32,000 bases of DNA, from NCBI RefSeq assembly GCF_000012805.1, contig NC_007484.1, positions 2,220,001 to 2,252,000 of the forward strand. The letters are read 5' to 3'. A model generated the notes under the pieces. The model searched no databases and had not been told where the DNA came from. It saw only the letters and a program-made list of their open reading frames with translations. The stretch comes from Nitrosococcus oceani ATCC 19707 (GTDB taxonomy: Bacteria > Pseudomonadota > Gammaproteobacteria > Nitrosococcales > Nitrosococcaceae). A program made the translations under genes and the position numbers. Every line of letters starts with the position of its first letter. Position 1 is the stretch's first letter. Positions 5,629-24,250 of the stretch are shown in pieces.

Positions 5629-5722
5629 AGAATCTATTTACCCTGTTTGTGCGTTAGGATTTAACAAATGCAGAATATTCACCTCTTAAGCTAGCCAGAT
5701 AGGGTTGCTGATTCACCGTCAG

Positions 5723-5880
5723 CTAGAGCAGACGGCTTTTTAGGGCATGCTCGTACTGATGCACCTTATTAAGCCCCAAGGCACCAACCAAACCTGACCA
5801 CGCGTCAACGATGTTTCTAGCGGCGTTGACATCGCGTTGCGAAGATAAGCTGCACTCAGTGGAATCAACCTATGCCGGCG
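5723..5880 (-). pseudogene. tnpB: IS605/IS200-family tnpB (OrfB) C-terminal relic
   Basis: The reverse-strand frame reads ...IKRGNRRHRVDSTECSLSSQRDVNAARNIVDAWSGLVGALGLNKVHQYEHALKSRLL* (stop at 5723..5725). 'RDVNAARNI' is the hallmark C-terminal RuvC-III motif of TnpB/OrfB, and the preceding CxxC zinc-finger half is degraded (ECSLS). The frame is closed by a stop just upstream, so only about 50 codons survive. Confidence 0.5.
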
Positions 5881-6212
5881 GTTCCCGCGCTTAATTTATT
5901 AAGATTAAACAGCCTACAAGGAAAAGCAAGCCGCTCTGAAACTAGCAATTTATTTAATGATTAAGTTAAACTAAATTGTCAGAATAATATTAATCAAAAT
6001 AAATTACACCTTAAAAAGCAAGTCACTTAGAGATAAACTCGGTAATGACCAAATTATTCTGCATGCATTTTCCTGGAAAACCATTCTATTCAGTGGAACA
6101 AAGGCTGATTTTTAATAAAATTTTAATTAATTTTCTCACCAAGGGAAGCGCCAAAGCCCTTATTTCACGGTTATGTATGATCGCATACAAGCGGAAGAGC
6201 TGTTAAGTTCTC

Positions 6213-7958: not shown

Positions 7959-8073
7959 TTTTTTCCAGTGCTAGAAAGCGAGCGAGTGGATGGCTAATTC
8001 AGCTTGTATTTCGTGCAGCTTTCGGGTATCCCTTCTCCTCGTAGGGAGTTGCCATAACCTAGTAGAAGGTTGC

Positions 8074-9642
8074 TCAATTAGAATCGGAGACGAATTTCAG
8101 CTCGGTAGAAGCATATCGTTTACGAGTTTTTTCTATAGCCCAATGGAAAAGCAAGCTATACTCCCTACCTGAATAGGTTCCTGATGCTGGACGGGGGACA
8201 TCAAGATTTAATATCTCTACAAGCGAGCTAAGCTGGGCTTTGGAAAGATACCATCCCAAGGTTCCGTACCGTATCCTCCGAAATAGTTGAACCCTCACCT
8301 CCTCCGCCATGCGCCGTACGATAGCTTGCTCATGAGGTTGACTTCTAAGCTTTCTTTCTCGAAACTGGAGAAAATCATCCCAAGACGCTTCAGTAAACAT
8401 TGTCGAAATATTGCTAGCAATCCACGTAGGTTGTGTGACAGCCTTCTTGATATTACCAAAAGACTGCCTTGACACTCCCGCTTCTTCAGCTATTCGCCGC
8501 GGGATAGGCCGGTCATACCAGCCACCTAACCGGAATTTAGCCATCTCATGGGATAATGAAATTTGATTAAGCTCAGGCCGTCTGTACATAGTTAATAGGG
8601 GAATGGGTAAATTCAGGAAACCTACCCGTAGCCGAAATTCAGACATAGAACCACCGAGGCCACCGGTTGTAGACCGCCCGTAGCGATGGTGGTTGACATT
8701 TTTAGTGGTGACCTTCCATAAGCCATCGCCGAAATCACCCTTGACGAAAATTCGCTTCTCAAGCGCGGTACTCAAGGGCGCATAAACAACATCGTCGCCA
8801 CCGTTTCCGCTAGCCAGGAATTCAGCCTCGGGGTACTGTTCCAATTTAAGATATGCTTCCCGTTCAATTGGCAACAAGGTAACTTCTAGTGCCTTGGCAA
8901 TATCCGTTGCATCCTCCATATGTCCATGCCGCGAATCAGCAAACGTTACTGCTTCTGTACAGCCAATTGACTTAACAAGCGCGGTACATGCTGGGGAATC
9001 ATAACCCGTTGAAAGCGAGCTTAGGGGAGTATACTGAATAGTTCGTGCCGAATCCGTAGCATTATCGTAAATAGCACGAATAATTTTAACGAGGTAGTCA
9101 ATATACCCCGTATAATCGGTAAACGCAGGAGGCGTGGGGCGAGATATTCGCCGCTGAACTAGGTCATGGCCAACCGCAATGCCATCATGATAGTGAAGAG
9201 TAGCCTGGTGCTTTTCATCGAGGGGAACTGAAGTTAGCGCTTTGTTATGCCCTTGCAGAATTGAGAAAAAATCTGTTTCGTAAAAGCCATAACTACCTAA
9301 TAGCTGTTGTGAACTAGCCTCTAGCAGGTAACAGAAGGAGTTAGAAATATACAATACATTGCCATTGCGTATGCTATGTAACCGCTCGGTCGGGTAAGTT
9401 GCAGGAAAAAAAAATACTTCGTTAGCTCTAAGAGCACCGCCCGATCCTAATAAGACTTCAGAATCGTGAAGTTCGCCCTTGGAAAAATCGCCTAACCAAG
9501 CACCCTCAACAAAAAAAGTAGCTGTCTGTTCTACCCAAGAACCGTGCTCGACGACTACTGTATCATTCCCTTTAGTGATGCTCGCACACCACGCCAAGCG
9601 GGGAATTGTAGCGTTTTCACGATAACAAAAACGAAAACTCAT
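8074..9642 (-). CDS. Uncharacterised AsnB-superfamily-like PP-loop protein, paralog C (no Cys2)
   Basis: 522-aa ORF with L-S-T-G-Y-D-S at 8995..9015. It is colinear with paralog A along its whole length: IPRLAWCAS, VVVEHGSWVEQ, FFVEGAW, LLGSGGAL, ERLHSIRNGNVLYISNSFCYLLEA, DSARTIQYTPLSSLSTGYDSPAC, TEAVTF, PEAEFLASGNGGDDVV, SEFRLRVGF.N.PIPLLTM, YDRPIPRRIAEEAGVSRQSFGNIKKAVTQPTW. Confidence 0.75.
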   Translation of the reverse strand: MSFRFCYRENATIPRLAWCASITKGNDTVVVEHGSWVEQTATFFVEGAWLGDFSKGELHDSEVLLGSGGALRANEVFFFPATYPTERLHSIRNGNVLYISNSFCYLLEASSQQLLGSYGFYETDFFSILQGHNKALTSVPLDEKHQATLHYHDGIAVGHDLVQRRISRPTPPAFTDYTGYIDYLVKIIRAIYDNATDSARTIQYTPLSSLSTGYDSPACTALVKSIGCTEAVTFADSRHGHMEDATDIAKALEVTLLPIEREAYLKLEQYPEAEFLASGNGGDDVVYAPLSTALEKRIFVKGDFGDGLWKVTTKNVNHHRYGRSTTGGLGGSMSEFRLRVGFLNLPIPLLTMYRRPELNQISLSHEMAKFRLGGWYDRPIPRRIAEEAGVSRQSFGNIKKAVTQPTWIASNISTMFTEASWDDFLQFRERKLRSQPHEQAIVRRMAEEVRVQLFRRIRYGTLGWYLSKAQLSSLVEILNLDVPRPASGTYSGREYSLLFHWAIEKTRKRYASTELKFVSDSN

Positions 9643-10258
9643 ACCCTACTCACTAGCATTTTTCTTTGGCTCGATAGCCATCTGGAAGAAAGGAAGCGCT
9701 CACCTCAAGGAGATTCTCACATAGCGAAGGAGAGCACTAATTGGAATTTTACTAGTCGGTGAGATAAATCCTGAATAGTGAATATACCAGAGGAAAATAC
9801 CATGGGCTAGAATAACAGAAGAAGACATGTATGAATAGCTGCACCACAGCCCTTACCGAATAGCGCAATGATAAAATCATTGGTGATGGTAGTTTGAGAA
9901 ACTAAGAAGATAATGGCCATAAGCTGACCAAAATACAAAAATATGATCAAAAACCTTCTTCTATATTTGACTTAATTCACAAAGGCTGACAGGAAATTAC
10001 CTATAAAAACCACCCTGTGTTAACGGCTTAATAATGACTTTACCATAAGAACTATTCTAACAGACAGTTTTAAGTATGATCGGGAAGATAAACTCCTTGA
10101 CTAATGATCTTAATTAAAGATATATGGTCCACCCCAGCATCGAGGGCAAAAATATAGATAAATTATACAGCGAAGCTTTAAAGAATCAAAGATAAATCTA
10201 GCAGCGGGGGAGTACTCAGCCGATTACGAAGCCTGCAGAAAACCGGCTAAAATAGCCT

Positions 10259-10288
10259 GAGCGGAGTCCATCACTCGGACTCACGCTC
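10259..10288 (-). terminator. Stem-loop (possible relic intrinsic terminator) in the decayed region
   Basis: gagcg-gagtcc [atcactc] ggactc-a-cgctc forms 11 bp with one bulged base. On the minus strand it is followed by a partial U-run (aggctatttta) and spans the stop of a decayed reading frame (...GFGVEINERESE*). Confidence 0.25.
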
Positions 10289-10689
10289 GTTAATCTCTAC
10301 TCCAAAACCGTAGTAAATCGTCTCTAACATAAAGCGAACCAACACATAAGTAGCTAATACGCCCTAAACGATAGCAATCGGCAAACACCAGCCATCAAAG
10401 ACAGTTATTCGCTCGCGTTTCCCTGCAATGACAATGGCTAGGCCGCCCGGCTAAATATCTAAACAACCCTTTGTCATCAGGCGCAAATTCAGAGCTTGTA
10501 ATAGTTCTAAAAAAGAGATTTATATCGCCGCTATCCTCACTGCCAACAAAAAGCTCCCTCTTTTAATATCAATTATTATAACCAACTTGTCTGCACCGGG
10601 AACTTCAACTGTATACCAGGACAGAGCTAATCGCATCAGAGAAGCGGTAAACAAACACAACCAACCTAATTATTGGAACTCCAAAACAT

Positions 10690-10878
10690 ATGTTTTATTT
10701 TCACGCTGGTATGCACAAAACCAGTACCACTTTTATGCAAAAAAATGTCCTTCCACAATTCCACGGTATTAAATATCTGCCTCCCTGGTCACCTTTTGAT
10801 TACTTTCTTCGCTTGCATGATAAAGAGAATTACTTGTACTCCAATGAAAGATTAGCAAGGTTACTGTGGGCTCCCTAG
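10690..10878 (+). pseudogene. N-terminal fragment of a sulfotransferase-fold-like gene (decayed)
   Basis: 62-aa ORF MFYFHAGMHKTSTTFMQKNVLP... whose H-x-G-M-x-K-T-[SG]-T-T start resembles the 5'-PSB/P-loop-like N-terminus of sulfotransferase-fold proteins. After the stop, fragments continue in other frames (..EQRISGLFPAVAHFNKF*, FRCHDGFIVSS..) up to the IS end. The call is weak. Confidence 0.3.
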
Positions 10879-11004
10879 CCCCAAACTGACTCCAGCTTAG
10901 AACAGCGTATTAGTGGCTTATTTCCAGCCGTCGCGCATTTTAATAAGTTTTAGATGCCACGATGGATTTATAGTATCTTCTTTAATAAATAATTAATCCT
11001 TAGG

Positions 11005-11610
11005 TAACCCCCTGGCTGCGCCGGAGGGACTAGCATAGGTTTGACTGAAGCTATTATGGTTTCCCTAGCCTTCGCATTTCGACCAAGAAGTGTGAAGGAG
11101 CCACCTATGCCAGACTACAAGCGTCTGACCCATACGAAATGGGGCTGCAAATACCATGTAGTTTTTATTCCTAAGAAGAGACGGGAGTGGATTTACGGCA
11201 ACTTACGGAAATATTGGGGAGAGATTTTTCGCGCGTTAGCCACTCGCAGAAGGGTGGAGATTGTAGAGGGGCCTTTGATGAGAGACCATGTTCATATTTG
11301 CCTCAATATACCTCCAAAGTATTCGGTTTCTCAGGTGGTGGGCTATCTCAAGGGTAAGAGTGCCATTGCGATAGCGAGAAGGTTTCGTGGAAAGCAAAGG
11401 AAGTTCAATGGGGAACATTTCTGGGCATGAGGGTATTTTGTGTCCACGGTAGGTCTCGATGAGAGGGTAGCGCGAGAGTACCATTCGGAACCAAGAGAAG
11501 AATGATGAGTATAGAGATCAGTTGAAGCTTGGTATGTGAGCGTCTTGGGCGCTATAAAAGCCCTTTGAGGGCGTCACACAATAAGCCTCCGGCTTTGCCG
11601 GAGGTCCTTT
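11005..11610 (+). mobile_element. IS200/IS605-family element (IS200-type, tnpA only), inactivated
   Basis: A tnpA pseudogene is flanked by two similar subterminal hairpins that share the 3' arm GCCGGAGG. The left hairpin is cccctggc-tgc-gccggagg (11009..11027, imperfect). The right hairpin is cctccggc-ttt-gccggagg (11586..11604, perfect 8 bp). Element boundaries are approximate. Confidence 0.6.
11107..11539 (+). pseudogene. tnpA: IS200-type Y1 (HUH) transposase TnpA with an in-frame TGA and a 1-nt frameshift
   Basis: ATG at 11107 is preceded by GAAGGAG. The sequence reads MPDYKRLTHTKWGCKYHVVFIPKKRR...RDHVHICLNIPPKYSVSQVVGYLKGKSA...GEHFWA, with the HUH motif (H-V-H) at 11287..11295. The TGA at 11428..11430 sits where family members have Arg (W-A-R-G-Y). 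The frame then reads GYFVSTVGLDERVAREY. An extra base near 11482 breaks the expected YIRNQEKNDE...LKLGM* tail, which ends at 11539. Confidence 0.8.
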
Positions 11611-11774
11611 AACTTCTTCATGAAGATGGTATGTTGAAATTTGAAGAATACTTTTTATATTAACAACGATCGAGGCTATATGAAGAAAGATCAATTTCTT
11701 TACAAAAAAAGGATTTATTCCAAAATAAAGCATTAATGAGCAACTTTCAAAAATTTTTCCAGCAGCTTCTTACC

Positions 11775-12722
11775 TTAATCTCTACGAGGCAAAGCCAACA
11801 ACCCTAGTAGCACAGCAAACCACAATGTGGCCAATCGTATAAACAGGGTACAGGCAACGGCTTGAGCCTCTCCCATGCCATTTAACAGCAACAGCCCTAT
11901 CATCGTAACCTCAGCGCTACCCAGCCCTCCCGGCAAAAAACTCAGTGCCCCAACAAGCATAGAAAAGGCATAAATAAACACCGCCTCAATGAGGCTAATC
12001 TCCCCACCCATCCAATTAGCCACATAATATAGTCCTAGCCCTTCAGCACCCCAGGCAAAAAAGCCCAAGGAAATAGCATAAACCATCGTGGAAAAAGCAA
12101 AACAGCGGCGGAAATGCAAAACCATCTCGATGATCGAGATTAAAAAACTCCTCAGCCGCGGCCTAGAGAAACGCTCTACCCAGGTCTCTATTCCTCGGAG
12201 CCAACGGGGAATATGCAATAATATAAGTCCCATGACCAAGGCTATTCCAAGGCCAAGAATAATTGGCTGAGCCCTCTCATGACGCCAAGCTCCTGCCGCT
12301 ATCAAAATAAGCACCGCGATGAGATCGCAAAGACGTTCCGCAAAGAAGGCTGCTAAGCTTTTCGAGTAAGGTACCCCATGGTGTTTTAAAAACACGCTCC
12401 GAAGCATTTCCCCCGCTTTACCTGGGGTAGTGGTCAACGCAAATCCAGCCAAATAGATACGAAGGCTTGGTTCCAGAGAAAGCGGGTGCCCAAGTAACTG
12501 CAGATAATGCTGCCAACGTACGAAACGCAATCCATAGTTCACTAAGGAAAGCCCTAATACAATCACAGTACCCCAAAAACCGACAGCGCCTATAGTCTGT
12601 AATACTTCACGCCAACCGCCCCAGAGGGAAACGCCTAAGTAACCGGCGGCGGAAAACGCCACCGAGAGCAAGAACACCCGATAACGCCACCCCTGCAACG
12701 ATTTCAATTCGGTACTTGCCAT
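11775..12722 (-). CDS. Flippase-like / lysylphosphatidylglycerol-synthase-TM-domain family (UPF0104) membrane protein
   Basis: 315-aa polytopic ORF with the family-typical loop LTTTPGKAGEMLRSVFLK and C-terminal FLPGGLGSAEV. It is the last gene of the pentose-donor operon, 10 nt after the UbiA-like gene. Confidence 0.6.
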   Translation of the reverse strand: MASTELKSLQGWRYRVFLLSVAFSAAGYLGVSLWGGWREVLQTIGAVGFWGTVIVLGLSLVNYGLRFVRWQHYLQLLGHPLSLEPSLRIYLAGFALTTTPGKAGEMLRSVFLKHHGVPYSKSLAAFFAERLCDLIAVLILIAAGAWRHERAQPIILGLGIALVMGLILLHIPRWLRGIETWVERFSRPRLRSFLISIIEMVLHFRRCFAFSTMVYAISLGFFAWGAEGLGLYYVANWMGGEISLIEAVFIYAFSMLVGALSFLPGGLGSAEVTMIGLLLLNGMGEAQAVACTLFIRLATLWFAVLLGLLALPRRD

Positions 12723-12732
12723 GACCGGGATA

Positions 12733-13605
12733 CTAGCGGATCAACCAAAACGTAAGGGCCATCCAGCCTACCACCGAAATCAGGATATGGGGGTCGCGCA
12801 TCAAATCACGAGAAGGCTCTCCGCCCTTTCCCCGGTGGTGGAGTAGAAAAATATAACGAAAGATAGCGTACATTACGAATGGCAATGTATAGATAAGATT
12901 TTCAGTTTGGTGAACCCGGATCGTTTCCGGACTCATGGTATAGAGGCCATACGACATCAAGACACAAGCCGCAGTCACGGTAATCATTTTATCAAGCAGA
13001 ATAGGGCTGTAATAAGCCAACACCCGACGGTGTTCTGCCTTGCCTTCTCGTAGCGCCATTATCTCAGCGCGACGCTTAGCAAAACCTAAAAACAAAGTCA
13101 ACATTAGAGAACACAACACTAACCATTGAGAAGGGGGAATACCCACACCAACCGTGCCTGCTAAAATACGCAATAAAAACCCCGCAGCAATAATAAACAC
13201 ATCTAAAAGCACCACATGTTTAAGCTTAAATGAATAAGCAAGATTCATAAAAGCGTAGCCCAGCAGGATTAACAGCCCAGCTTGGGAAACCCATAAACCC
13301 AGTCCCAAACTAAGCATAAGCAAGATAACCGCCAAGCGGACGGCCACCCCTACTCCTACAATACCGGCAGCGAGGGGGCGGTGCTGCTTGATAGGATGGT
13401 TACGATCACTTTCCCGATCAGTCAGATCGTTAATGATATAGATAGCACTGGAAAGTAGAGAAAAAGCTACAGCCATAGCGATCACTTGAGCAATCAAGGG
13501 AAGATCGCTCCAAGCATGGCTGAAGAACATGCCCACGAAAACAAAGCTATTTTTCAGCCATTGCTGAGGCCGCATAAGATGCAACAAAGCGAGGGGATGA
13601 TTCAA
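12733..13605 (-). CDS. UbiA-family polyprenyl-phosphate 5-phosphoribosyltransferase (decaprenyl-phosphate phosphoribosyltransferase-like)
   Basis: 290 aa, starting MRPQQWLKNSFVF, with an Asp-rich motif INDLTDRESDRNHPIKQHRPLAAG (NDxxDxxxD) and a second block LLDVFIIAAGFLLRILAG. This pattern matches the Rv3806c-type subfamily rather than quinone prenyltransferases. The track start is TTG at 13605 (GGAG 9 nt upstream); an alternative ATG lies at 13575. Confidence 0.75.
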   Translation of the reverse strand: MNHPLALLHLMRPQQWLKNSFVFVGMFFSHAWSDLPLIAQVIAMAVAFSLLSSAIYIINDLTDRESDRNHPIKQHRPLAAGIVGVGVAVRLAVILLMLSLGLGLWVSQAGLLILLGYAFMNLAYSFKLKHVVLLDVFIIAAGFLLRILAGTVGVGIPPSQWLVLCSLMLTLFLGFAKRRAEIMALREGKAEHRRVLAYYSPILLDKMITVTAACVLMSYGLYTMSPETIRVHQTENLIYTLPFVMYAIFRYIFLLHHRGKGGEPSRDLMRDPHILISVVGWMALTFWLIR

Positions 13606-14231
13606 GGGAGGCGCTCCACAGGAAACCGACGGTAATAAGGATAATCGGCATAATCCAACAATGCTTGATCTCCCCTGCTATCCCCATAAGCATATAAACG
13701 ATAGCGACGACGTTCTCCTAGTAACGCTGCCAGGCGCCGGAGTTTTTCCTCGCCATAGCAGTTTTTTCCGCTCAACCGCCCAGTCACCAAGCCAGTAGGC
13801 GTCAACTCTAAACCCGAACAGAGCACCTCCGTAAAAGCCATACTCTCAGCCCAAGGCTTCAAGTAAAGATCCAATGAAGCACTTATTAGAATACAGCGAT
13901 GATTCTGGCGTTGATGCCAAGCTAAACGCTGTAAGGCGCGGCGACGTAGCAAGTAAGGGAGTGTAGATTGAATAAAATGCCGCCCTATCTGCTCTAGACC
14001 GGCAAGTTCTTGTCCCGCCAGAAAGCGCATTAAAACTCGCTGTTTGGCCTCATCATTGCTAAGCCTGCCCCCTTTATAGGCAAGCAAGATAGGCGCCAAA
14101 TCCACCATATTCCGGGTGAAGCGGCGAGTCCCAACAACAGCGCGCAAAAAAAGGAGCAGACTATCCCCGTAGGTAAGCGTGCCGTCAAAATCAAAGGCCG
14201 CCACCACAGGTAAATTGCGGTCTGTTTTCAT
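13602..14231 (-). CDS. HAD-superfamily (subfamily IB-like) phosphatase
   Basis: 209 aa with motif I FDFDGTLTYGDS and motif IV YGDSRGDQALL. Its start abuts the SDR stop (TAAATG), and its stop overlaps the UbiA-like start. Confidence 0.7.
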   Translation of the reverse strand: MKTDRNLPVVAAFDFDGTLTYGDSLLLFLRAVVGTRRFTRNMVDLAPILLAYKGGRLSNDEAKQRVLMRFLAGQELAGLEQIGRHFIQSTLPYLLRRRALQRLAWHQRQNHRCILISASLDLYLKPWAESMAFTEVLCSGLELTPTGLVTGRLSGKNCYGEEKLRRLAALLGERRRYRLYAYGDSRGDQALLDYADYPYYRRFPVERLP

Positions 14232-14972
14232 TTAGAGTTTAAGGCGCTTAAATAAGGGCTCTGGGATCATTCGGATAACAAACATAATGTAAAACCAAAA
14301 CCAGGGAACATAAATAACATCCCGGGATCGTTCCAAAGCCGCCACAATCCGCTCACCAACGCTAGCCGGAGAAGCCAGAAGAAAAAGCCCAGGCAAACCA
14401 AAAGTCATCGCAGTATCCACAAACCCTGGTTTGATAGTAAGCACCCGCACGCCAGCAGGAAATAAGCGATTACGCAGACCTTGGAGAAAGAGACTTAGCC
14501 CACCCTTAGCCGCACCATAATAATAATTGCTTTGCCGCCCTCGATCACCGGCTACTGAGGATAAACCAATAATAAAGCCCGCCCCTTTACCTTCCAGATA
14601 AGCAGCGCATTCGCCAAGCAAGGAAACGGCGCCAGTGAAATTGACGGCAATAATTTTCTCTGTTTCTTCAAAATGAGTTTGGGCGAATATCGAGTCACCC
14701 AGATAGCCAATCGCCCATACTACCCCTTCCAAGCCTCCCATAGTTTCAATAACTCGTTCCAGGAATCGACGATGGGCAGCGTAATCCGTGGCATCAACCG
14801 CTCCGTAACGCACTTCCACTTGATATCGAATATTGAGATCGGCTGCAATCCGCGCCAGCTCCGATTCATCCTTCCCGCCCAGATACAAAGAGTGGCCACG
14901 GCGGGCTAGTGCCGCTGCCGTACCGCGGGCGATCGCAGAGGTAGCGCCCAACACCAGAACCGGCCCTCTCAT
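14232..14972 (-). CDS. Short-chain dehydrogenase/reductase, DprE2-like (polyprenyl-phospho-2-keto-pentose reductase candidate)
   Basis: 246 aa with Rossmann motif GATSAIARGTAAALARRG and catalytic SNYYYGAAKGG (YxxxK). The hydrophobic C-terminal tail is VPWFWFYIMFVIRMIPEPLF. An ATGA overlap joins it to the upstream FAD oxidase gene. Confidence 0.7.
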   Translation of the reverse strand: MRGPVLVLGATSAIARGTAAALARRGHSLYLGGKDESELARIAADLNIRYQVEVRYGAVDATDYAAHRRFLERVIETMGGLEGVVWAIGYLGDSIFAQTHFEETEKIIAVNFTGAVSLLGECAAYLEGKGAGFIIGLSSVAGDRGRQSNYYYGAAKGGLSLFLQGLRNRLFPAGVRVLTIKPGFVDTAMTFGLPGLFLLASPASVGERIVAALERSRDVIYVPWFWFYIMFVIRMIPEPLFKRLKL

Positions 14973-16327
14973 GGCGCACCTGTCAGCTGAAGCCGACGCG
15001 AGAGATCGGACTGGAAGCGTTCTTCTGGGTCAATCACCTGTTTAACTTGCTGCCATTCCCCCAGGCGGGGGTACATGGCGCGCAAACTCTCCGGACTCAA
15101 ACGGGCGTCTTTAGCCAAGTACACTCGCCCTCCATAATCGATTACTATCTCATCTAATTGCTGCAATAGGTTAAGCACCTTCTCGCCCCCCATTGGCAAA
15201 TCTAAAGCGAGGGTATAGCCAGCCAAAGGAAAGGACAAAGGGGCGATATTACCTGGACCCAACCGCTTAAGTACCGCCAGAAATGAGGCTTGCCGATTGC
15301 GTGCAAGATATTCTAATAAACAACGTATTCCCTCGTAAGCGTGGGGCTCGGGAATTGCTGCCTGGTATTGCAAAAACCCCCGCTTACCATATAGGCGATT
15401 CCAGTGCGCCAATGTGTCTAAAGGATAGAAAAATGCAGAATAATCAGTCAAAAAGGGAGCTTTTTTACTTCCTTGGCGGTGGTAGTAAAACTCATTAAAA
15501 GCAGCTATGGTAACTCGATTGAGAATAAACGGGGGCAAATTGAATGGAACACTTTTCTGTCGCTTGGGATGAGAGCATAGTGGCTCTTCCCAATCGCCGG
15601 GCAGCTCATCGCGAACGGCGTGATGACCGGTTATGAGAATACCACGGCCAAGGTGGCGGCTACGGCCCGCGCAATCGAGCCAAGCAACGCTGTACTGGTC
15701 ATCATGCTCGGTATCCTCCAGCCATTTAAAAATGGTTTCCAGGTCGGGGACTGTATAATTCCGGGCCATAATAGCAGCCGTCTCAATAGGCATCAGACGG
15801 AAACTCACTTCGGTGATAATGCCGGTTAGCCCCATTCCTCCCACAGTAGCCCAAAATAGGGCTTCGTTCTGGTTAGGAGAACAACGTTGCCGCCGTCCAT
15901 CAGCAAGGATTAACTCTAGCTCTATTACATGAGCGGCAAACGCCTCCTTATGGTGATGGTTTTTACCGTGGACATCGGCGGCTACAGTCCCCCCCAGAGA
16001 AACGTATTGGGTGCCTGGAGTGACTGGAGGGAACCAGCCGCGGGGAACGAAAGTCTCTAGAATTTCTGCTAGAGTCACGCCGGCCTCAGCCGTTAATACG
16101 CCGGTGGCATTGTCAAAGGCCAAAAATCGGTTAAGCCGCTCAGTGAGTATTACGCGACCTTGGGAAGAAATAGCGGCATCCCCATAACTTCGGCCCTGAC
16201 CCCGGCATATCAAATGTTCTTCCCCCAAGACACAGGCTTGCGGCATTTTTTCAGGTCGAATCAGAATCGATTCCGCTACGGGATAACGTCCCCAGCCAGA
16301 AATAGTTTTACTAAGCGAGGCTGCCAT
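14969..16327 (-). CDS. FAD-linked oxidase (PCMH/FAD_binding_4 type), DprE1-like
   Basis: 452 aa. It starts ISGWGRYP and carries the GRGQGRSYGDAAI motif, GGTVAADVHGKNHH and GMGLTGIITEVSF. Size and motifs fit decaprenylphosphoryl-ribose 2'-oxidase-type enzymes. Confidence 0.75.
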   Translation of the reverse strand: MAASLSKTISGWGRYPVAESILIRPEKMPQACVLGEEHLICRGQGRSYGDAAISSQGRVILTERLNRFLAFDNATGVLTAEAGVTLAEILETFVPRGWFPPVTPGTQYVSLGGTVAADVHGKNHHHKEAFAAHVIELELILADGRRQRCSPNQNEALFWATVGGMGLTGIITEVSFRLMPIETAAIMARNYTVPDLETIFKWLEDTEHDDQYSVAWLDCAGRSRHLGRGILITGHHAVRDELPGDWEEPLCSHPKRQKSVPFNLPPFILNRVTIAAFNEFYYHRQGSKKAPFLTDYSAFFYPLDTLAHWNRLYGKRGFLQYQAAIPEPHAYEGIRCLLEYLARNRQASFLAVLKRLGPGNIAPLSFPLAGYTLALDLPMGGEKVLNLLQQLDEIVIDYGGRVYLAKDARLSPESLRAMYPRLGEWQQVKQVIDPEERFQSDLSRRLQLTGAP

Positions 16328-16663
16328 AAGATGTCTAACTTTTTTACACTTCAGCTGCTTTTTTTTGAGTTGTAAAATAACAAAAGTGTTTAGATTATTA
16401 TAAAAAAATCTAGATTTTCAAGAAAAATTATATTTAAACGACTAATATACATAGCTATTTTTATATTTTTTATTGGGCATGCGCTCTCCCTAAAGCCATC
16501 CTCTGTTTTCAAAAAAATTTGATTCCACGTAAGGGGACTTTACATTTTACTGTTTTTCTCTAATTAATTCCTTTTCTGCACTGTGCCAGAATATAAGCTC
16601 TAACCAGCGGATTGCCTCTAAAAATGCAAAATAAAGATGTAATTTTGGAATTATATTCACAAT

Positions 16664-16680
16664 AGGACTCTTTTTTGCAT
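16664..16680 (+). promoter_or_regulatory. Candidate sigma-54 (-24/-12) promoter upstream of the PEP-CTERM gene
   Basis: aGGactcttttTTGCAt has GG-N10-GC spacing and a perfect -12 TTGCA but a poor -24 half. It lies about 70 nt upstream of ATG 16748. Chance matches of this quality are common. Confidence 0.2.
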
Positions 16681-16747
16681 AAATTTTTTTATTAATAATA
16701 TAGTGTAATCGGCTTTACAAGCGGTATCCACTGAAGGATTTTTAATT

Positions 16748-17652
16748 ATGCTAAAAAATATAACAGTTTTCTGGATATTACTCCTTGCTCCATTTTCACC
16801 TAGCTGGGCCATTTCCTTTACTTCTTTTGGTCCTAATGGCGAAGGTGGCGCTATTAACGGACAGAATTTTTTTTTGATCGCCAGGGTGTGGTTTTTGAAT
16901 TAGATGCTTTTCTGAATATTAAAGGCTTAGATTTAAATGGTGGCACTGTCATAGGAACCAGCGCCCAGTTTTCCTTTGATGCCCTCCCACCTGGTCTTAC
17001 ATTTGGTTTCTCTTCATCCTTATCTTCGGATCTCAGCAATCTAGCTCTAACCTATACTCTTTCTAACTCTACTACTGCAAAAATTTTCCCAGAAGTGACC
17101 TTTTTCTCATTTTTGGATGGAGATATTGCTGACTTTGATATCAGAGAAATCTTTGAAACCCTAACACCACAAGAGCTTCTGGAAATCTCACTAAACGACT
17201 TTGCTGAGGCATCTGGGATCCTCGGCTCTGGCGCTTCCGACAGCGATCCCGATTCTTGGGAAATTGATGAGCCAGAATTTCTTTTTGGCGATATCTTCAA
17301 TAACCTTTTACTTGGAGCACTCGATAATAGCAACGCTATTCCGATATCTTTCCCAGAAGACGCCTCCCTAGCCCTAGGGTTTAATTTAGGAGATCTAAAC
17401 CCATTTGAAACCGCAACAATAGATGTCTTCTTGTCTGAAAGTGGCAACTCCATTGGAAATTTCTTCTTAACCCAACGAGACCTTAACCCAAATTCCTTTA
17501 CCTCCATCACAATGTCAGGCCAATCCAGCGTCAAGCAGAACCCAATTCCCCCAATTCCAGAACCTCCTACTTGGCTACTACTTACCGCAGGACTAGCAGC
17601 CCTGAAACTCTCTTGGCAGCTAAAAATGGATTCCACTAATCCTACATTATAA
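16748..17652 (+). CDS. Secreted PEP-CTERM-type protein; signal peptide and mature part are in different frames (break at a T9 tract)
   Basis: ATG 16748 (AAGGA 9 nt upstream) encodes MLKNITVFWILLLAPFSPSWA|ISFTSFGPNGEGGAINGQNFF. This frame then stops at 16899..16901. The long ORF (track 16888..17652) is in the -1 frame and is open back to 16858. The C-terminus reads IPEPPTWLLLTAGLAALKLSWQLK (PEP at 17557..17565, then a hydrophobic helix and Lys). The body is Ser/Thr/Asp-rich. Confidence 0.65.
16867..16875 (+). repeat. Homopolymeric T9 tract at the frame junction of the PEP-CTERM gene
   Basis: There are nine consecutive T at 16867..16875. In the signal-peptide frame the tract reads aaT TTT TTT TTg, a U-UUU-UUU slippery heptamer. 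Confidence 0.9.
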
Positions 17653-17654
17653 TG

Positions 17655-19019
17655 TTACGCCTGGAACCAATTAGACTTCAAACGTACGTAAACTATCCCT
17701 AACCAACGATGCACTTTTATCTGCCGCCCAAACAGCAATATAAAAGTAATCATCAGTGATTGGGTAGGAATCGAATAGCGTGTGTTACCGTATTCAAATA
17801 ATGCTTGCACCAAGGAGGTAACAATGATGAGTACGGTAATAACTAGCGGAACTCGTAACGCAGGTTCAGCATAACCTTGAAATAGGGCAACCTTTACAAT
17901 AAGGCCAGCAGCAAAAAATATAAATAACAGATTCATAACCCTGATCAGCCCTTGTTCAACCCACCAAAGGCGCTCAAGGGAGGCGGCCACTGTAGGGGAT
18001 ATTATTTTGGTGGGTTTCCAGTAATTAGGCGCAACCCAGAAGGAAACCCATGATTTAAAGACGCTTTGCAAATATAAGGCAGGATGCTCCACAAAAAGTT
18101 GGAGCGAGAGGCGGGCAAGCTTCCGCGAGAGATCCACGTGACTTAGGCCCGTTGCTGCCATAATCTCACCCTTTGCCTCAAAGATTGTCATACTGTGATT
18201 CCCGCTCTGCTTCACTTTTTTCTCCCGGTATCGGAGATAGATATCTCGTAACTTGGACGGCGGCGCCCGCTCGATAAAACCACCGCTATGATTGCTGAGG
18301 TTATACCCCATAAAAGTTGTGATTCCAGCATAATCAAGAGTTATCTTGTTAAAGCCGATCCACCCTGATACGGGTAAAGCAAAACAGAGCAAGACGATGA
18401 GAGGGATACAAATCCGATTGCGCCCTCGAAAAAACAAGATCGCTAGCAAGATGTACAAAGGACCAACAAAAGCAAAGAGGGGGTGGGTGAGCGCCAAAAG
18501 CGAGCTTGCGCCCCCAAGACCAACCGCCGGCCAAAATTTCCGTTCACTTACTAGCAGCTTTGAAAAAATAAATACTGAGAATATCAGCAGGAAGGACGAT
18601 ACCGACTCCGTCAGAAGATTTGCCTCAAATAACAGCTCATTTAGGGCCAAGGAATGAATGGTCCCCGCGCTGAAAGCAAGGCTCACTTTCCGTGTCTGCT
18701 CAAATACCAATACAAATAAAAGAAGCGAGGCCGAAACCCCAAGCACGGATTGAAGAAACCAGACACCAAAAGGGTTTTTCCCCGCAAGAAGCAACAGCAG
18801 CGGGTAAACGGGAGTTCGGGTCCCATCATATTCGCTAAAGTCCAGGCGAACCAACTCTCCGGCGAGCTGCAGGTAAGTGCCCGTATCAGGCCATATCACC
18901 GGCGCATAGACAATCCACAGGAACACCCTCACGAGGATGCAGATTCCTAAAAGCCAAAATAATCCTTGGCATACGGCCTGCCTTTCGGAGAGTAAAATAG
19001 ATTCCCTTTCCTTTATCAT
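17655..19019 (-). CDS. GT-C fold glycosyltransferase (ArnT/PMT_2-like, polyprenyl-phosphate-sugar dependent)
   Basis: 454-aa polytopic ORF. The first loop (VIWPDTGTYLQLAGELVRLDFSEYDGTRTPVYPLLLLLAG) resembles the GT39/GT83 signature (acidic residue + Y...A ... R.P.YPl). It has more than 9 hydrophobic segments and a soluble loop in the middle. Confidence 0.6.
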   Translation of the reverse strand: MIKERESILLSERQAVCQGLFWLLGICILVRVFLWIVYAPVIWPDTGTYLQLAGELVRLDFSEYDGTRTPVYPLLLLLAGKNPFGVWFLQSVLGVSASLLLFVLVFEQTRKVSLAFSAGTIHSLALNELLFEANLLTESVSSFLLIFSVFIFSKLLVSERKFWPAVGLGGASSLLALTHPLFAFVGPLYILLAILFFRGRNRICIPLIVLLCFALPVSGWIGFNKITLDYAGITTFMGYNLSNHSGGFIERAPPSKLRDIYLRYREKKVKQSGNHSMTIFEAKGEIMAATGLSHVDLSRKLARLSLQLFVEHPALYLQSVFKSWVSFWVAPNYWKPTKIISPTVAASLERLWWVEQGLIRVMNLLFIFFAAGLIVKVALFQGYAEPALRVPLVITVLIIVTSLVQALFEYGNTRYSIPTQSLMITFILLFGRQIKVHRWLGIVYVRLKSNWFQA

Positions 19020-19048
19020 CTTGGAACCATAAGCTCTTTAATATTAAT

Positions 19049-19879
19049 TTATCCCGTCAACCGTTTCATACGGGTTGATAATTCATCACATACTTCAAGG
19101 ATGGCCGAATCAATTTCGGGAGGAGGCTTTCGGCGCACGGAGCTAGCGACTACCTTACGGCTCACACGCGGCGTATAAGTAATGCCAAGAAATGCAAAAA
19201 GCTCATTGAGTATTTCAGCGGGGCGCTGGACAAGCTGCTCGTAACATACCAAACGTACGCGGGAATCCTGATCCAAATTTTGCTCGAAAAAAAGAATATT
19301 GCGGAAGTACCAAAAGAGTGCGCAGGCTGAAGCATTGCTGATTCCAGGATGATAAAGGGATCTGATTAAGGCATGGGTTTTACCCGACATCCCCCGACCA
19401 CGCCATCCGGCAGTATTGCGGTCTTGAACAATACGCCGAATGCTCTCTGGCATCCCAGTCCAAAGCGCTAGGTGGGAATTCACGACATCTTCATAACTGC
19501 GCACTAGCCATACGCCCTTGGAAGGCATGAATTCATCCAATAAATGGCGCAGTTCTTGAAGCTCACAAAGTGCTTTGAGCACCACATGCTGGGCACTAGA
19601 TTCCTTTACTAGCCTGTGAATAACTTCTCGTGAACGCATCTCATAGCTATCAAAAGCACGCTTATCACGCTCATGATAAACCACGGTCTCATAATCTCGT
19701 TCAAAAACATCCATTAGCATATTGGTTCCCGATCTCTGAACCCCTGCAATAAAAATAACCTGTTTGACAGCTTTGCAGGACGGAGATAGAAACAGCGTTT
19801 GATAAGCTTTTTTCCTGAGAAGAAAAGTACGATGCTCAACTTTCGCAAGCGCGGGAGAAAAGCGACTATGGCTTTTCAT
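19049..19879 (-). CDS. Sulfotransferase-family protein
   Basis: 276 aa with a 5'-PSB-like motif FIAGVQRSGTNMLMDVF. The later segment VVLKALCE...VWLVRSYEDVVNS is consistent with a 3'-PB region. An ATGA overlap joins it to the upstream ligase-like gene. Confidence 0.65.
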   Translation of the reverse strand: MKSHSRFSPALAKVEHRTFLLRKKAYQTLFLSPSCKAVKQVIFIAGVQRSGTNMLMDVFERDYETVVYHERDKRAFDSYEMRSREVIHRLVKESSAQHVVLKALCELQELRHLLDEFMPSKGVWLVRSYEDVVNSHLALWTGMPESIRRIVQDRNTAGWRGRGMSGKTHALIRSLYHPGISNASACALFWYFRNILFFEQNLDQDSRVRLVCYEQLVQRPAEILNELFAFLGITYTPRVSRKVVASSVRRKPPPEIDSAILEVCDELSTRMKRLTG

Positions 19880-21282
19880 AGATGTCTTCCAGAGCTCTCT
19901 TCAGGAAAGCTTTCGCTCTGGCTCTTGCTCGAAAAAGATCCCTTACCTACCCTAGGAGGGGGGTGCCAATCAGAGCGCACCCCTTTACCTGTAAAGGCTG
20001 TAGCTGAACGGCGACTAGCTATCCGCTCATCAGACAAAGCCTCCCGCCAGAGCAATGCTGCTAAGACGACAAAGAGATAATAAAGATCGAAATAAGCTAG
20101 ATTCAAAAAAGCTCCTGTAACAGCGTATCCAACAAGGCCAACCCTCAGCGCCCACGCATATTGTCCTATCCACCGCAAATCAGAGATTTCTAAAGTCCAT
20201 TTCTTAAGCCGTCCCAACCGTCGGTAAGTCAGGAACAAAATTATCATAAATAGACTGAGGCCAACAAAACCATGTTGTCCTAGCATCTGAAAATAAATGC
20301 TATGAGCTACATGAGCGCCTTCCATTACATAATAATATTTAGGATCAAGATAAGTATGCCACCGAGCAGTATCGCCTTCATACTCAAACCCCCCCCCGCG
20401 CAAGGGTCTATCAATTGCGATATTCCAAGCAAGGTCCCATGCCGCAATACGCTGCATCGACGAGGCGTCCATTTCATAGTTTTGAATGCTCTCCGCCCGA
20501 TTAAATAGCTTTTCGGGGACAAATGCTAAGCCGCCAAAGAGTATAGGTATGAGCATAATAACCAGCAAGGCTTTATTACGCCATCTCATAAACAGCAGCA
20601 CAGAAACTACTGCAAGCCCCAACATCGCGCCTCGTGAATAAGTGAAGGGAACTGCAATAAAGGTAAGGGCAAAAGTGGCATATAAAAGCCGACGAAACCA
20701 AACTCGCGCTTCCTGTTGTGCAAAAACCAAAAGAAGAGGCAATCCCATTACCATAGCTAGCCCTAGAAAATTGTTACCTGCTAGAAAAGACTTAGGTGGT
20801 CCCATTACATGGAATTGCCCACCTGTAAGAATGGTAAATAGACCACCTTTAAAGCCATAAAAACCTAGACTCAGAGTTGCGACTAGAAGCAGCCAATAAA
20901 TCCGCTGTTTGCCATAGATGAGTATCGTCGTTACATAACTCATTAAAAAAATCTTTGCCACCTTATCCCACTGTTGCCAAGCAGCATCAGGTGCCCAGGC
21001 GAAGAACGTGGTAAAAGTCATATACCCAAAAAGCACCAATAAGAGTCGAAGTTCAGGTGTCCAGGCAATAGACTTCCTATCTCGCACCAGCAGCATTCCC
21101 CCTAATATCGCAATCGCCACTAACTGCGCAAAGGGCATATCCCAAGCAAAACCCCACGTCAACCGATGAGGATTCATAATGCTTATCCATGTCCATACTA
21201 AAATACCAATCCATGGACGTAAAAAACAAACAGGCAGCAAGGCAAAAATAACCCCTGTGATCAGGATATCGCGAAACGGCAT
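19876..21282 (-). CDS. Wzy_C / O-antigen-ligase-like membrane protein ('putative O-glycosylation ligase, exosortase A system-associated' type)
   Basis: 468 aa and polytopic. The N-terminus (LLPVCFLRPWIGILVWTWISIMNPHRLTWGFAWDMPFAQ) and the central block (YSRGAMLGLAVVSVLLFMRW) are typical of the Wzy_C domain family as I recall it. Confidence 0.7.
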   Translation of the reverse strand: MPFRDILITGVIFALLPVCFLRPWIGILVWTWISIMNPHRLTWGFAWDMPFAQLVAIAILGGMLLVRDRKSIAWTPELRLLLVLFGYMTFTTFFAWAPDAAWQQWDKVAKIFLMSYVTTILIYGKQRIYWLLLVATLSLGFYGFKGGLFTILTGGQFHVMGPPKSFLAGNNFLGLAMVMGLPLLLVFAQQEARVWFRRLLYATFALTFIAVPFTYSRGAMLGLAVVSVLLFMRWRNKALLVIMLIPILFGGLAFVPEKLFNRAESIQNYEMDASSMQRIAAWDLAWNIAIDRPLRGGGFEYEGDTARWHTYLDPKYYYVMEGAHVAHSIYFQMLGQHGFVGLSLFMIILFLTYRRLGRLKKWTLEISDLRWIGQYAWALRVGLVGYAVTGAFLNLAYFDLYYLFVVLAALLWREALSDERIASRRSATAFTGKGVRSDWHPPPRVGKGSFSSKSQSESFPEESSGRHL

Positions 21283-21331
21283 TAGCGAGTTATACTGAAG
21301 TAATTTTTAAAATGTGAATAGATTTAATTTT

Positions 21332-21352
21332 TTTCGGCGCTAGATACCGAAA
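21332..21352. promoter_or_regulatory. Inverted repeat TTTCGG-N9-CCGAAA in the divergent promoter region
   Basis: tttcgg cgctagata ccgaaa lies within the 119-bp AT-rich spacer between the divergent ligase-like (-) and acyl-ligase (+) genes. It is a possible operator but has no other support. Confidence 0.2.
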
Positions 21353-21401
21353 TCTTAGTTTCTTACAAAAAACTTGCCGAAAGTGGCACGGAAAAAGCGT
21401 T

Positions 21402-24247: not shown

Positions 24248-24250
24248 CCA

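Follow-up and report, generated by a model that had tools for sequence, protein, structure and literature searches.

A predicted lipid-linked D-arabinofuranose donor cassette in an exosortase A exopolysaccharide locus of Nitrosococcus oceani

In the 32,000-nucleotide stretch of DNA analysed here (the window), from the marine ammonia oxidiser Nitrosococcus oceani, five tightly coupled minus-strand ORFs spanning 16327..11775 very probably encode a donor pathway for lipid-linked D-arabinofuranose (Araf). As one operon, they would assemble this donor at the inner membrane, on its cytoplasmic side; the carrier lipid is presumably the undecaprenyl phosphate of other Gram-negative bacteria. A UbiA-family phosphoribosyltransferase would charge the lipid from PRPP, a HAD-IB phosphatase would take off the 5'-phosphate, a DprE1-like flavoenzyme would oxidise the 2'-hydroxyl, and a DprE2-like reductase would then reduce the product with inversion, yielding polyprenyl-P-arabinofuranose. 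An MprF-type flippase-like protein would carry the donor to the periplasmic face, and the neighbouring GT-C glycosyltransferase, Noc_1953, would transfer the sugar from it. The acceptor would most likely be the sulfated exopolysaccharide (EPS) of Wzx/Wzy type from the surrounding exosortase A (XrtA) locus and, less likely, a PEP-CTERM protein. We favour this account as a whole with moderate confidence; within it, the use of the donor by Noc_1953 is likely, and the chance that the acceptor is the XrtA-locus polysaccharide is about even. The type of pathway is already known and widespread; new are the separate HAD-IB phosphatase, the LPG_synthase_TM flippase candidate, the uncatalogued GT-C family and the XrtA-EPS context.

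The five genes of the cassette, in gene order, are:

14969..16327, minus strand: DprE1-like FAD-dependent polyprenyl-phospho-ribofuranose 2'-oxidase (452 aa)
14232..14972, minus strand: DprE2-like SDR reductase (246 aa), overlapping the DprE1 gene by 4 nt (ATGA)
13602..14231, minus strand: HAD-IB phosphatase, proposed polyprenyl-P-ribose-5-phosphate 5'-phosphatase (209 aa)
12733..13605, minus strand: UbiA-family polyprenyl-phosphate 5-phosphoribosyltransferase (290 aa), with a TTG start and a TTGA overlap with the HAD gene
11775..12722, minus strand: LPG_synthase_TM / TIGR00374 'flippase-like' polytopic membrane protein, proposed lipid-linked pentofuranose flippase (315 aa)

All five ORFs of the original prediction are present on the minus strand with exact coordinates, and their junctions run 4-nt, 0-nt, 4-nt and then a 10-nt gap. 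The predicted ATGA at 14969..14972, TAAATG at 14229..14234 and gap at 12723..12732 were found, but 13602..13605 reads TTGA and not, as proposed, ATGA, and the UbiA gene consequently starts with TTG. Judged by comparison of orthologues, this TTG is the genuine start, and not the ATG 30 nt downstream that is called by some pipelines: the ten extra N-terminal residues are kept in N. halophilus and Nitrosoglobus, where synonymous codon changes leave the amino acids the same, and betaproteobacterial orthologues begin at the equivalent position. Two possible regulatory sites bracket the cassette:

16394..16421, minus strand: promoter-like site some 67 nt before the DprE1 start (TTGAAA-16-AATAAT, 10/12 positions)
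11586..11604, both strands: GC-rich hairpin some 170 nt past the end of the last cassette gene (stem of 8-9 bp, 7 GC pairs)

The promoter-like site lies in an intergenic region of 28% GC and is at most suggestive, because such sites are no more numerous there than in shuffles. The hairpin is a possible, likewise only suggestive, bidirectional terminator. The cassette is bordered by the remnant of an IS200 transposase and by non-coding, AT-rich DNA.

In mycobacteria, the decaprenyl-phosphoarabinose pathway comprises Rv3806c, Rv3807c, DprE1 (Rv3790), DprE2 (Rv3791), Rv3789 and the Emb/Aft GT-C transferases. The N. oceani oxidase, which carries the predicted GRSYGD motif at residues 45-50, reaches 452.6 bits against NF053785, the model for DprE1, versus 65 bits for the next family, and its best PDB match is DprE1 (4aut, 3e-94, 39% identity over 440 columns). 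Its HGKNHH motif (120-125) and the catalytic lysine K406 of YLAKDAR are invariant in alignment A1, and catalytic residues are invariant among 12 diverse homologues; the counterpart of the benzothiazinone-binding Cys387 of the mycobacterial enzyme is Ala374. Among solved structures, the SDR is closest to DprE2 (21gq_C, 2.6e-26, 34% identity to the mycobacterial enzyme), in a match that includes the DprE2-specific C-terminal tail, and the GATSAIA and YGAAK motifs are present. It scores 289 bits on PRK07102 (cut-off 267) and 168 bits on the DprE2 model NF053786; both it (168 vs 250) and the oxidase (452.6 vs 500) miss the NCBIfam equivalog cut-offs. The UbiA protein passes the decaprenyl-phosphate phosphoribosyltransferase model NF008977 (272.5 bits, NCBIfam cut-off 234), scores at most 45 bits on every heme, quinone and chlorophyll prenyltransferase model, and has Rv3806c as its closest solved relative (8j8j, 3e-38, 34% identity). 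The RPQQWLKN (12-19) and NDLTDRESD (59-67) motifs quoted for it are in place, and the latter (N59, D60, D63, D67), together with KRRAE, corresponds to residues required in ORF15 of Citrobacter youngae and in Rv3806c (PMC11127046). By these sequence comparisons, the three core enzymes are clear relatives of DprE1, DprE2 and Rv3806c with intact catalytic motifs, and the homology checks proposed with the original prediction turned out in its favour.

The phosphatase is a HAD protein rather than PAP2, as had been proposed (PF12710 at 7e-42; TIGR01490 at 141.6 bits, cut-off 98.3), and its DFDGT (14-18) and GDSRGD (183-188) motifs are invariant in alignment A5. Its gene lies between the DprE2 and UbiA genes in 15 loci, and this position, along with the HAD-type phosphatase of C. 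youngae ORF15 as a precedent (PMC11127046), suggests a role as the 5'-phosphatase. It is not detectably orthologous to the ORF15-type phosphatase domain (BLASTP E 0.03 versus the HAD::UbiA fusion of locus L090). The flippase-like protein matches PF03706 over its full length (8e-47) and TIGR00374 at 88.4 bits (cut-off 43.2), and weakly matches the MprF flippase domain and the GlcN-PG flippase. A search by sequence for a solved relative found none, and its structure model reaches a pLDDT of only 52. Its gene closes the cassette in 11 genome loci and five metagenome loci, and in alphaproteobacterial cassettes a GtrA-like gene fills the same slot, consistent with a role of the LPG_synthase_TM protein in flipping the donor; the corresponding slot in C. 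youngae is occupied by a MATE protein (PMC11127046).

The pathway logic has an experimentally supported and, by the authors' statement, widespread precedent in the 'three-component' pentofuranose systems of Kelly et al., PNAS 2024, which use HAD-type phosphatases, with DprE1/E2 add-ons for Araf-containing glycans (PMC11127046). There, a UbiA-type synthase converts PRPP to polyprenyl-P-ribofuranose and a HAD-type phosphatase removes the 5'-phosphate, followed by optional epimerases, flippase export and periplasmic GT-C transfer to the glycan (PMC11127046). The C. youngae O1/O2 system, consisting of ORF15, ORF14 and ORF12 plus ORF13 (PMC11127046), is alike in this logic but has its phosphatase as the N-terminal domain of the synthase, where N. 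oceani has a separate and not detectably orthologous HAD-IB protein, and a MATE flippase in place of the LPG_synthase_TM/TIGR00374 candidate. It is further housed in an O-antigen cluster and not in an exosortase A EPS locus, and the N. oceani GT-C comes from a small family that no Pfam model covers. In comparison with mycobacteria, the homologues of Rv3806c, DprE1 and DprE2 (34%, 39% and 34%) keep the catalytic motifs, and a GT-C transferase is again the predicted consumer of the donor. The phosphatase, however, is HAD-IB instead of PAP2, the candidate flippase MprF-like instead of the small GtrA/SMR-like Rv3789, and the lipid presumably C55 instead of C50; DprE1 and DprE2 fall short of the equivalog cut-offs, and the product would be a decoration, whereas the mycobacterial product serves an essential wall polymer.

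Other Proteobacteria also use donor pathways of this type. In Azorhizobium caulinodans and Rhizobium sp. IRBG74, which carry noeC(N)HOP, the noeCHOP genes arabinosylate Nod factors (PMC5080398), a use that, as predicted here, decorates a secreted glycoconjugate. A layout of this rhizobial type in Microvirga sesbaniae (L083) runs UbiA, GtrA-like, DprE1, DprE2 and a 403-aa protein, with a different transferase and without the HAD-IB and LPG_synthase_TM genes that N. oceani has. Pilin glycosylation with D-Araf in Pseudomonas aeruginosa PA7/Pa5196 involves the GT-C TfpW and homologues of the decaprenyl-phosphoarabinose pathway. There, homologues of Rv3806c, DprE1 and DprE2 make a Gram-negative lipid-linked Araf donor for a GT-C, as is predicted for N. 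oceani; the acceptor differs, being a type IV pilin, and demonstrates that proteins can be acceptors. We know of no exosortase locus and no LPG_synthase_TM gene reported for this system, and its phosphatase is from another structural family (PMC11127046). The original prediction held such pathways to be only sporadic outside actinobacteria. This is outdated, as no fewer than 598 reference species, drawn from many phyla, have DprE1 homologues and Kelly et al. describe a general system (PMC11127046). Of the 80 genome loci whose DprE1 is closest to that of the window, 73 have DprE1 adjoining DprE2. Eleven genome loci (Nitrosomonadales, Gallionellaceae, Burkholderiales, Perlucidibaca and others) carry all five genes in identical order, as do N. 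halophilus and Nitrosoglobus, and a PMT_2 GT-C gene abuts the cassette in 12 genome loci, so that a GT-C partner is the rule. The PMT_2-partnered cassettes (L007-L020, L040, L047; Nitrosomonadales, Gallionellaceae, Burkholderiales, Perlucidibaca) are uncharacterised; they share gene order and 50-67% identity with that of the window, but their neighbours, unlike those in N. oceani, are not XrtA genes.

Upstream of the N. oceani cassette lie the following genes:

16748..17652, plus strand: gene for a PEP-CTERM protein, pointing away from the cassette and towards the GT-C gene (motif E 0.0025, in 16888..17652)
17655..19019, minus strand: Noc_1953, GT-C fold glycosyltransferase, proposed arabinofuranosyltransferase (454 aa), previously unannotated
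19049..19879, minus strand: sulfotransferase (PF00685, PF13469), between the O-ligase-like gene and the GT-C gene
19876..21282, minus strand: TIGR03097 'putative O-glycosylation ligase, exosortase A system-associated' (Wzy_C/DUF5935; 606.7 bits, cut-off 188.1)

The predicted PEP-CTERM/EPS setting is borne out by matches above curated cut-offs to TIGR03097 (606.7 bits), TIGR03098 (867), TIGR03099 (673.5), TIGR03100 (430.2) and TIGR03101 (403.4), and the flank of the cassette is thus a genuine XrtA EPS locus. The exosortase gene is absent from the window; the tables of Haft et al. 2006 differ on it, one listing Noc_1978 and another Noc_1778 (PMC1569441). The TIGR03097 gene heads the operon that contains the GT-C gene, and its homologues adjoin the cassette or its GT-C gene in N. 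halophilus, Nitrosoglobus and loci L090, L093, L097, L105 and L152, of which L105 is a certified XrtA locus (TIGR03108 at 1076, TIGR04063 at 633 and TIGR03097 at 458 bits). The embedding in XrtA loci is real and recurs in unrelated organisms. Speaking against the proposed decoration, we found no paper in the literature linking exosortase or PEP-CTERM with arabinofuranose. The position of the sulfotransferase gene is kept in N. halophilus and in the Nitrosococcus-like contig L095. The PEP-CTERM gene, whose signal peptide ORF begins at 16748, is broken by a frameshift in a T9 run at 16867..16875, with the rest in the -1 frame; the T9 is found in all six N. oceani assemblies, and the N. halophilus orthologue is intact.

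Noc_1953 has no match in Pfam or NCBIfam and belongs to an uncatalogued GT-C family without a Pfam model. Its AF2 model (pLDDT 94.8) retrieves only GT-C proteins among the top 21 Foldseek hits in the PDB (STT3, AglB, PglB, ArnT, PMT; best E 8e-5), and the first periplasmic loop carries an invariant D45. The PMT_2 partners of other cassettes have no BLASTP similarity to it, and hhalign relates the two at E 9e-5 with a probability of 59%. Homologues of Noc_1953 lie directly upstream of a complete five-gene cassette in metagenome loci L097, L098, L105, L120 and L152, and near a PRK08238 HAD::UbiA fusion in L090 and L093. The linkage is not strict: for some 30 more remote members of the family, no cassette is in the vicinity, and in N. 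oceani itself the frameshifted, oppositely oriented PEP-CTERM gene parts the GT-C gene from the cassette.

This looseness bears on a credible but distinctly less probable reading, that the same Araf donor serves LPS, lipid A or a different glycan by way of a GT-C whose gene lies elsewhere, the position in the EPS locus being an accident of mobile-element traffic. Consistent with this, none of the 80 closest genome loci has XrtA genes within 10 kb, the usual cassette partner is an ArnT-like PMT_2 GT-C, and the IS200 remnant and AT-rich DNA lie alongside. Nitrosoglobus, moreover, keeps the cassette but has no Noc_1953 homologue close to it and is not named in any of the 46 family hits, and in L095 an intact GT-C gene stands beside decayed DprE1 and DprE2 genes. 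Against it, a Noc_1953-type GT-C gene and the cassette form one co-directional block in the five independent metagenome loci, three of which also have TIGR03097 and Wzx and one of which is the certified XrtA locus; a TIGR03097-type gene adjoins the cassette in all three Nitrosococcaceae genera, and, as weak evidence, no Nitrosococcaceae are among the named hits of the top 120 PMT_2-partner homologues. Decoration of the XrtA-locus product remains the preferred prediction.

An improbable reading is that the oxidase/reductase pair no longer shares the specificity of DprE1/DprE2 and the operon makes a lipid-linked pentofuranose other than Araf, be it ribofuranose only, the 2-keto intermediate or a different epimer. 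The sub-threshold equivalog scores and the 34-39% identity to the mycobacterial enzymes would fit such divergence, related loci L090 and L093 are without the epimerase pair, and a single SDR yields xylofuranose in C. youngae O2, indicating that the identity of the pentose can vary (PMC11127046). The FAD-oxidase plus SDR architecture, however, is that of DprE1/DprE2, with the catalytic lysine, HGKNHH and the DprE2 tail kept, the next best family scores far lower, and DprE1/E2 homologues accompany Gram-negative Araf-containing glycans (PMC11127046). An arabinofuranose product is accordingly still preferred. A chance cluster of unrelated housekeeping enzymes (quinone/heme prenyltransferase, FAD oxidase, SDR, phosphoserine-type phosphatase) would suit the generic Pfam domains (FAD_binding_4, adh_short, HAD, UbiA), but is effectively refuted by the wide margins of the specific models (272 vs at most 45 bits for UbiA, 453 vs 65 for the oxidase), by the three mycobacterial enzymes being the best PDB relatives, and by a five-gene order that is kept across phyla.

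The five-gene cassette on the minus strand (16327..11775) encodes, in order, a DprE1-like oxidase, a DprE2-like SDR, a HAD-IB phosphatase, a UbiA protein and an LPG_synthase_TM "flippase-like" protein, and an ORF check of the window confirmed these five genes, with all of their coordinates exact. The motifs that had been quoted for their products (GRSYGD, RPQQWLKN and NDLTDRESD among them) are present in the sequences. The gene junctions were likewise found as described (an ATGA overlap at 14969..14972, TAAATG at 14229..14234 and a 10-nt gap at 12723..12732), except that 13602..13605 reads TTGA and not ATGA. A TTG start of the UbiA gene is supported by two observations: N. halophilus and Nitrosoglobus keep the ten extra residues that it yields, with synonymous codon changes, and in other organisms the orthologous UbiA proteins begin at this position too. 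The GC content of the cassette is that of the genome (50%), and its upstream border is an intergenic region of 28% GC. Promoter and terminator scans of this region of the window gave counts not above those of shuffled sequences, and the operon is therefore delimited by the distances between its genes and by its AT-rich flanks. The proposed PEP-CTERM/EPS setting holds as well: the models TIGR03097, TIGR03098, TIGR03099, TIGR03100 and TIGR03101 all score above cut-off in a single stretch, and a PEP-CTERM gene is adjacent. The exosortase gene itself lies outside the window and has been printed both as Noc_1978 and as Noc_1778 (PMC1569441). The features of the locus are as follows.

740..2329, 4126..5628 and 8074..9642 (all minus strand): three paralogues of 500-530 aa
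2474..3949: Wzx flippase gene
6213..7958 (plus strand): gene for a 581-aa neighbour of the paralogues
11775..16327 (minus strand): five-gene cassette
16748..17652 (plus strand): PEP-CTERM gene
17655..19019 (minus strand): Noc_1953, proposed arabinofuranosyltransferase
19876..29681: stretch of the five TIGR markers, also with GT4, aminotransferase, GNAT, ACP and XrtA-type amidotransferase
29678..29968: intact acyl carrier protein gene (96 aa)
29996..30450 (minus strand): short ORFs in different frames

The reading of the cassette as a DPA-type donor pathway is supported by its three core enzymes. The oxidase (452 aa), which is encoded on N. oceani assemblies and matches a protein of strain ATCC 19707 at 100% identity, scores 452.6 bits on the NCBIfam DprE1 model versus 65 for the next family; as the equivalog cut-off is 500 bits, it is a member of the DprE1 family and not a certified equivalog. 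Its alignment with DprE1 structures covers the full length (3e-94, 39% identity), and both H120 and K122 of its HGKNHH motif and the catalytic lysine K406 (K418 in M. tuberculosis) are invariant in an alignment of 12 diverse homologues. DprE1 and DprE2 are the targets of benzothiazinone-type tuberculosis drugs, which bind covalently to Cys387 of M. tuberculosis DprE1. The equivalent position in the N. oceani protein is Ala374 (codon 15208..15210), and alanine occupies it in 90% or more of the 12 aligned non-actinobacterial homologues, predicting from sequence that environmental DprE1 homologues would be intrinsically insensitive to benzothiazinones. The SDR stays below the cut-off of the DprE2 model (168 versus 250 bits), and the one model that it passes, PRK07102, is generic for SDRs. 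Among solved structures DprE2 is closest to it (2.6e-26, with the C-terminal tail aligned), the YxxxK motif is present, and it follows DprE1 in 73 of the 80 genome loci closest to the DprE1 of the window. The UbiA protein exceeds the cut-off of NF008977 (decaprenyl-phosphate phosphoribosyltransferase; 272.5 bits, cut-off 234), matches Rv3806c at 3e-38, and carries both the NDxxDxxxD motif (NDLTDRESD, residues 59-67) and the R..E motif of loop IV (KRRAE, residues 177-181). NDxxDxxxD and KRxAE are the counterparts of residues that were mutagenised in C. youngae ORF15 and in M. tuberculosis (PMC11127046). Readings of these proteins as a quinone or heme prenyltransferase and as generic oxidoreductases are ruled out by the family scores and the closest solved structures, since the UbiA protein reaches at most 45 bits on heme, quinone and chlorophyll prenyltransferase models and the FAD/SDR pair has DprE1 and DprE2 as its best solved relatives.

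Kelly et al. (2024) described three-component systems in which a synthase with HAD phosphatase, a flippase and a GT-C are accompanied by auxiliary epimerases (PMC11127046). The phosphatase had been taken to be of the HAD rather than the PAP2 type, and this is what was found: the third gene encodes a HAD-IB phosphatase (TIGR01490, 141.6 bits) with a DxDGT nucleophile motif, which fills the slot of the absent PAP2-type 5'-phosphatase (of the Rv3807c kind). In C. youngae ORF15 the 5'-phosphatase step is carried out by a HAD-type phosphatase (PMC11127046). The HAD gene is translationally coupled to that of UbiA, the two proteins being split and not fused, so that a phosphoribose synthase and a phosphatase with a presumed role in the same route occur together. 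A single-sequence search with the HAD protein gave no solved relative, and the matches of a profile search of the PDB were limited to SerB-type phosphatases and one HAD-IB protein that is uncharacterised. For the flippase, neither a MATE nor a GtrA protein of the SMR/GtrA type is present. The fifth gene (11775..12722) encodes a full-length LPG_synthase_TM/TIGR00374 "flippase-like" protein, which by position only would be the functional analogue of the MATE/GtrA flippases. It is read as a flippase because this small-flippase slot is held by different families across lineages. Neither sequence nor profile searches of the PDB gave a match to it, and its single-sequence structure model (pLDDT 52) is unusable.

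A lipid-linked sugar requires a GT-C enzyme as its user. Noc_1953 is a polytopic protein of 454 aa that matches no Pfam or NCBIfam model and is labelled "RgtA/B/C/D-like" in UniRef. Its AlphaFold model, built with 44 homologues, is of high quality (pLDDT 94.8, pTM 0.92), and the best 21 PDB matches of this model are all GT-C enzymes (STT3, AglB, PglB, ArnT and PMT). D45 in the first periplasmic loop is invariant. Noc_1953 thus has a GT-C fold, and its family abuts the cassette in five loci, linking the transferase to the synthase. It falls outside the PMT_2/GT39/GT83 (ArnT-like) Pfam families, with a match to neither PF13231 nor PF02366. As PMT_2 is reached by only four of the 44 family members (best E 1.4e-5) and PMT by three, the family is a GT-C group that has no dedicated Pfam model. 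BLASTP of Noc_1953 versus the PMT_2 partner of the cassette found no similarity, and a profile-profile comparison with the PMT_2 partners gave 59% probability (E 9e-5); the relation between the two appears only at the level of profiles and modelled fold.

The pathway had been called sporadic outside actinobacteria, and this does not hold. DprE1 relatives occur in at least 598 GTDB species that span Proteobacteria, Acidobacteria, Planctomycetes, Verrucomicrobia, Chlamydiae, Armatimonadota, Spirochaetes and others, and Kelly et al. (2024) found DprE1/E2 homologues wherever Araf occurs and called the strategy widespread (PMC11127046). Earlier precedents are the Araf of P. aeruginosa pilin (as cited in PMC11127046) and the rhizobial noeCHOP genes (PMC5080398). 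Eleven of the 80 DprE1 loci have the five genes in the order of the window. A PMT_2 GT-C abuts the cassette in 12 loci, directly so in L007, and in alphaproteobacteria, among them the Sesbania symbiont Microvirga sesbaniae, the gene order of the cassette is UbiA, GtrA-like, DprE1, DprE2. No PMT_2-type partner is named in Nitrosococcaceae among the best 120 matches, most of which are nameless. None of the 80 loci is an XrtA locus, from which the XrtA association had seemed specific to Nitrosococcaceae; a metagenome scan with the Noc_1953 family, which yielded 35 loci of at least 8 kb, overturned this view.

Five of these loci (L097, L098, L105, L120 and L152; 38-42% identity) have the GT-C gene directly upstream of a complete cassette on the same strand; three of the five have, in addition, a TIGR03097-like gene before the GT-C gene and a Wzx gene after the cassette. 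The XrtA nature of L105 is certified (TIGR03108 1076 bits, TIGR04063 633, TIGR03097 458), and in L094 a typical set of XrtA genes ends with the GT-C gene. The N. oceani layout, which is shared by N. halophilus, looks like this block of GT-C and cassette into which a sulfotransferase gene and the oppositely oriented PEP-CTERM gene have been inserted. The linkage of Noc_1953 to the cassette is not strict: in Nitrosoglobus the cassette adjoins a TIGR03097-type gene, with no Noc_1953 homologue nearby, and more distant family members have other neighbours. The Nitrosoglobus cassette is followed not by a recognisable GT-C gene but by one (11781..13013 of locus L088) for a 410-aa protein with at least nine hydrophobic segments and an N-terminal VanZ-like domain; this protein may use the donor locally or have no connection with it. 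In the metagenomic EPS loci L090 and L093 (45-46% identity), the GT-C gene is flanked by a TIGR03097 gene, sulfotransferase genes and the gene of a HAD::UbiA fusion (PRK08238) whose domain architecture is that reported for ORF15 of C. youngae; as DprE1/E2 are lacking there, a sulfated EPS with ribofuranose and not arabinofuranose side chains is predicted. These two loci (about 500..20000) also hold genes for Wzx, an arylsulfotransferase and a heparinase II/III-like protein. In a Nitrosococcus-like metagenomic contig (L095) with 73-83% identity to the window proteins across the locus, DprE1 occurs as out-of-frame pieces at 13929..15148 (residues 1-27, 42-71, 73-170 and 368-395) and DprE2 as a remnant of residues 126-210, next to an intact Noc_1953 homologue, which suggests that the cassette of this contig is in decay.

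On the evidence of homology, motifs, the modelled GT-C fold and linked genes, the most probable route is one in which UbiA would join PRPP and undecaprenyl-P into lipid-P-ribose-5-P, the HAD protein would remove the 5'-phosphate, and oxidation by DprE1 followed by reduction by DprE2 at C2' would yield lipid-P-Araf as the predicted sugar product. The LPG_synthase_TM protein would flip this donor, and Noc_1953 would transfer Araf in the periplasm, the probable acceptor being a Wzx/Wzy-type sulfated EPS and, less likely, PEP-CTERM proteins. We tentatively propose, as possible rather than probable when both parts are taken together, that LPG_synthase_TM/TIGR00374 proteins are a third, unrecognised flippase class for polyprenyl-phosphate pentofuranoses, and that D-Araf decorates XrtA-type EPS (or PEP-CTERM proteins) in marine ammonia oxidisers and in several lineages without cultivated members, where it would be added periplasmically by the Noc_1953-type GT-C family that is uncatalogued in Pfam and NCBIfam.

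The general concept is already published; the N. oceani case adds a new setting to the three-component framework of 2024 and leaves current understanding in place. To our knowledge, PEP-CTERM/XrtA biochemistry has been largely uncharacterised since its description in 2006. Kelly et al. (2024) and its supplement make no mention of exosortase, Nitrosococcus or MprF-like proteins (PMC11127046), and literature searches found no paper joining exosortase or PEP-CTERM with arabinofuranose, and nothing relevant on Nitrosococcus EPS or arabinose. If confirmed, the proposal would give the first chemical handle on the product of an XrtA locus in nitrifiers, a sulfated EPS with D-Araf side chains. Two groups of proteins that lack annotation, the GT-C family of Noc_1953 and the cassette-linked LPG_synthase_TM proteins, would also gain a function, and the known substrates of MprF-like flippases would widen from aminoacyl and glycosyl phospholipids to polyprenyl-phosphate sugars. 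The abundance of environmental DprE1/DprE2 homologues, with alanine at the covalent-binding cysteine of DprE1, bears on natural reservoirs of resistance.

Several minor features accompany the locus. Just 3' of the cassette, 2 kb of mostly non-coding DNA (9643..11774, 41% GC) hold a remnant ORF of an IS200-type Y1 transposase at 11041..11430 on the plus strand (PF01797, profile positions 2-98 of 121), and other transposase genes lie a few kb from the cassette in N. halophilus. A T9 homopolymer (16867..16875) holds a frameshift that splits the PEP-CTERM gene, with the signal-peptide exon running from the ATG at 16748 and the remainder in the -1 frame; T10 would restore the frame. T9 is found in all six N. 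oceani assemblies and the N. halophilus orthologue is intact, and the N. oceani gene is either a fixed pseudogene or expressed through transcriptional or ribosomal slippage. The three paralogues are 37% identical, have no Pfam, NCBIfam or PDB match, and share an S(T/A)GYDSP motif that resembles PP-loop ATP pyrophosphatases; their 581-aa neighbour has a weak asparagine-synthase-like match. Homologues of this group also flank the cassette in N. halophilus, and the group may represent novel amidoligases that modify EPS. A polysaccharide deacetylase gene is common in XrtA loci, and the short ORFs at 29996..30450 (e.g., "STVDVEIWPDSW" and "HLHLHPEW") resemble fragments of such a deacetylase, making this, if correct, the second gene of the locus to have decayed.
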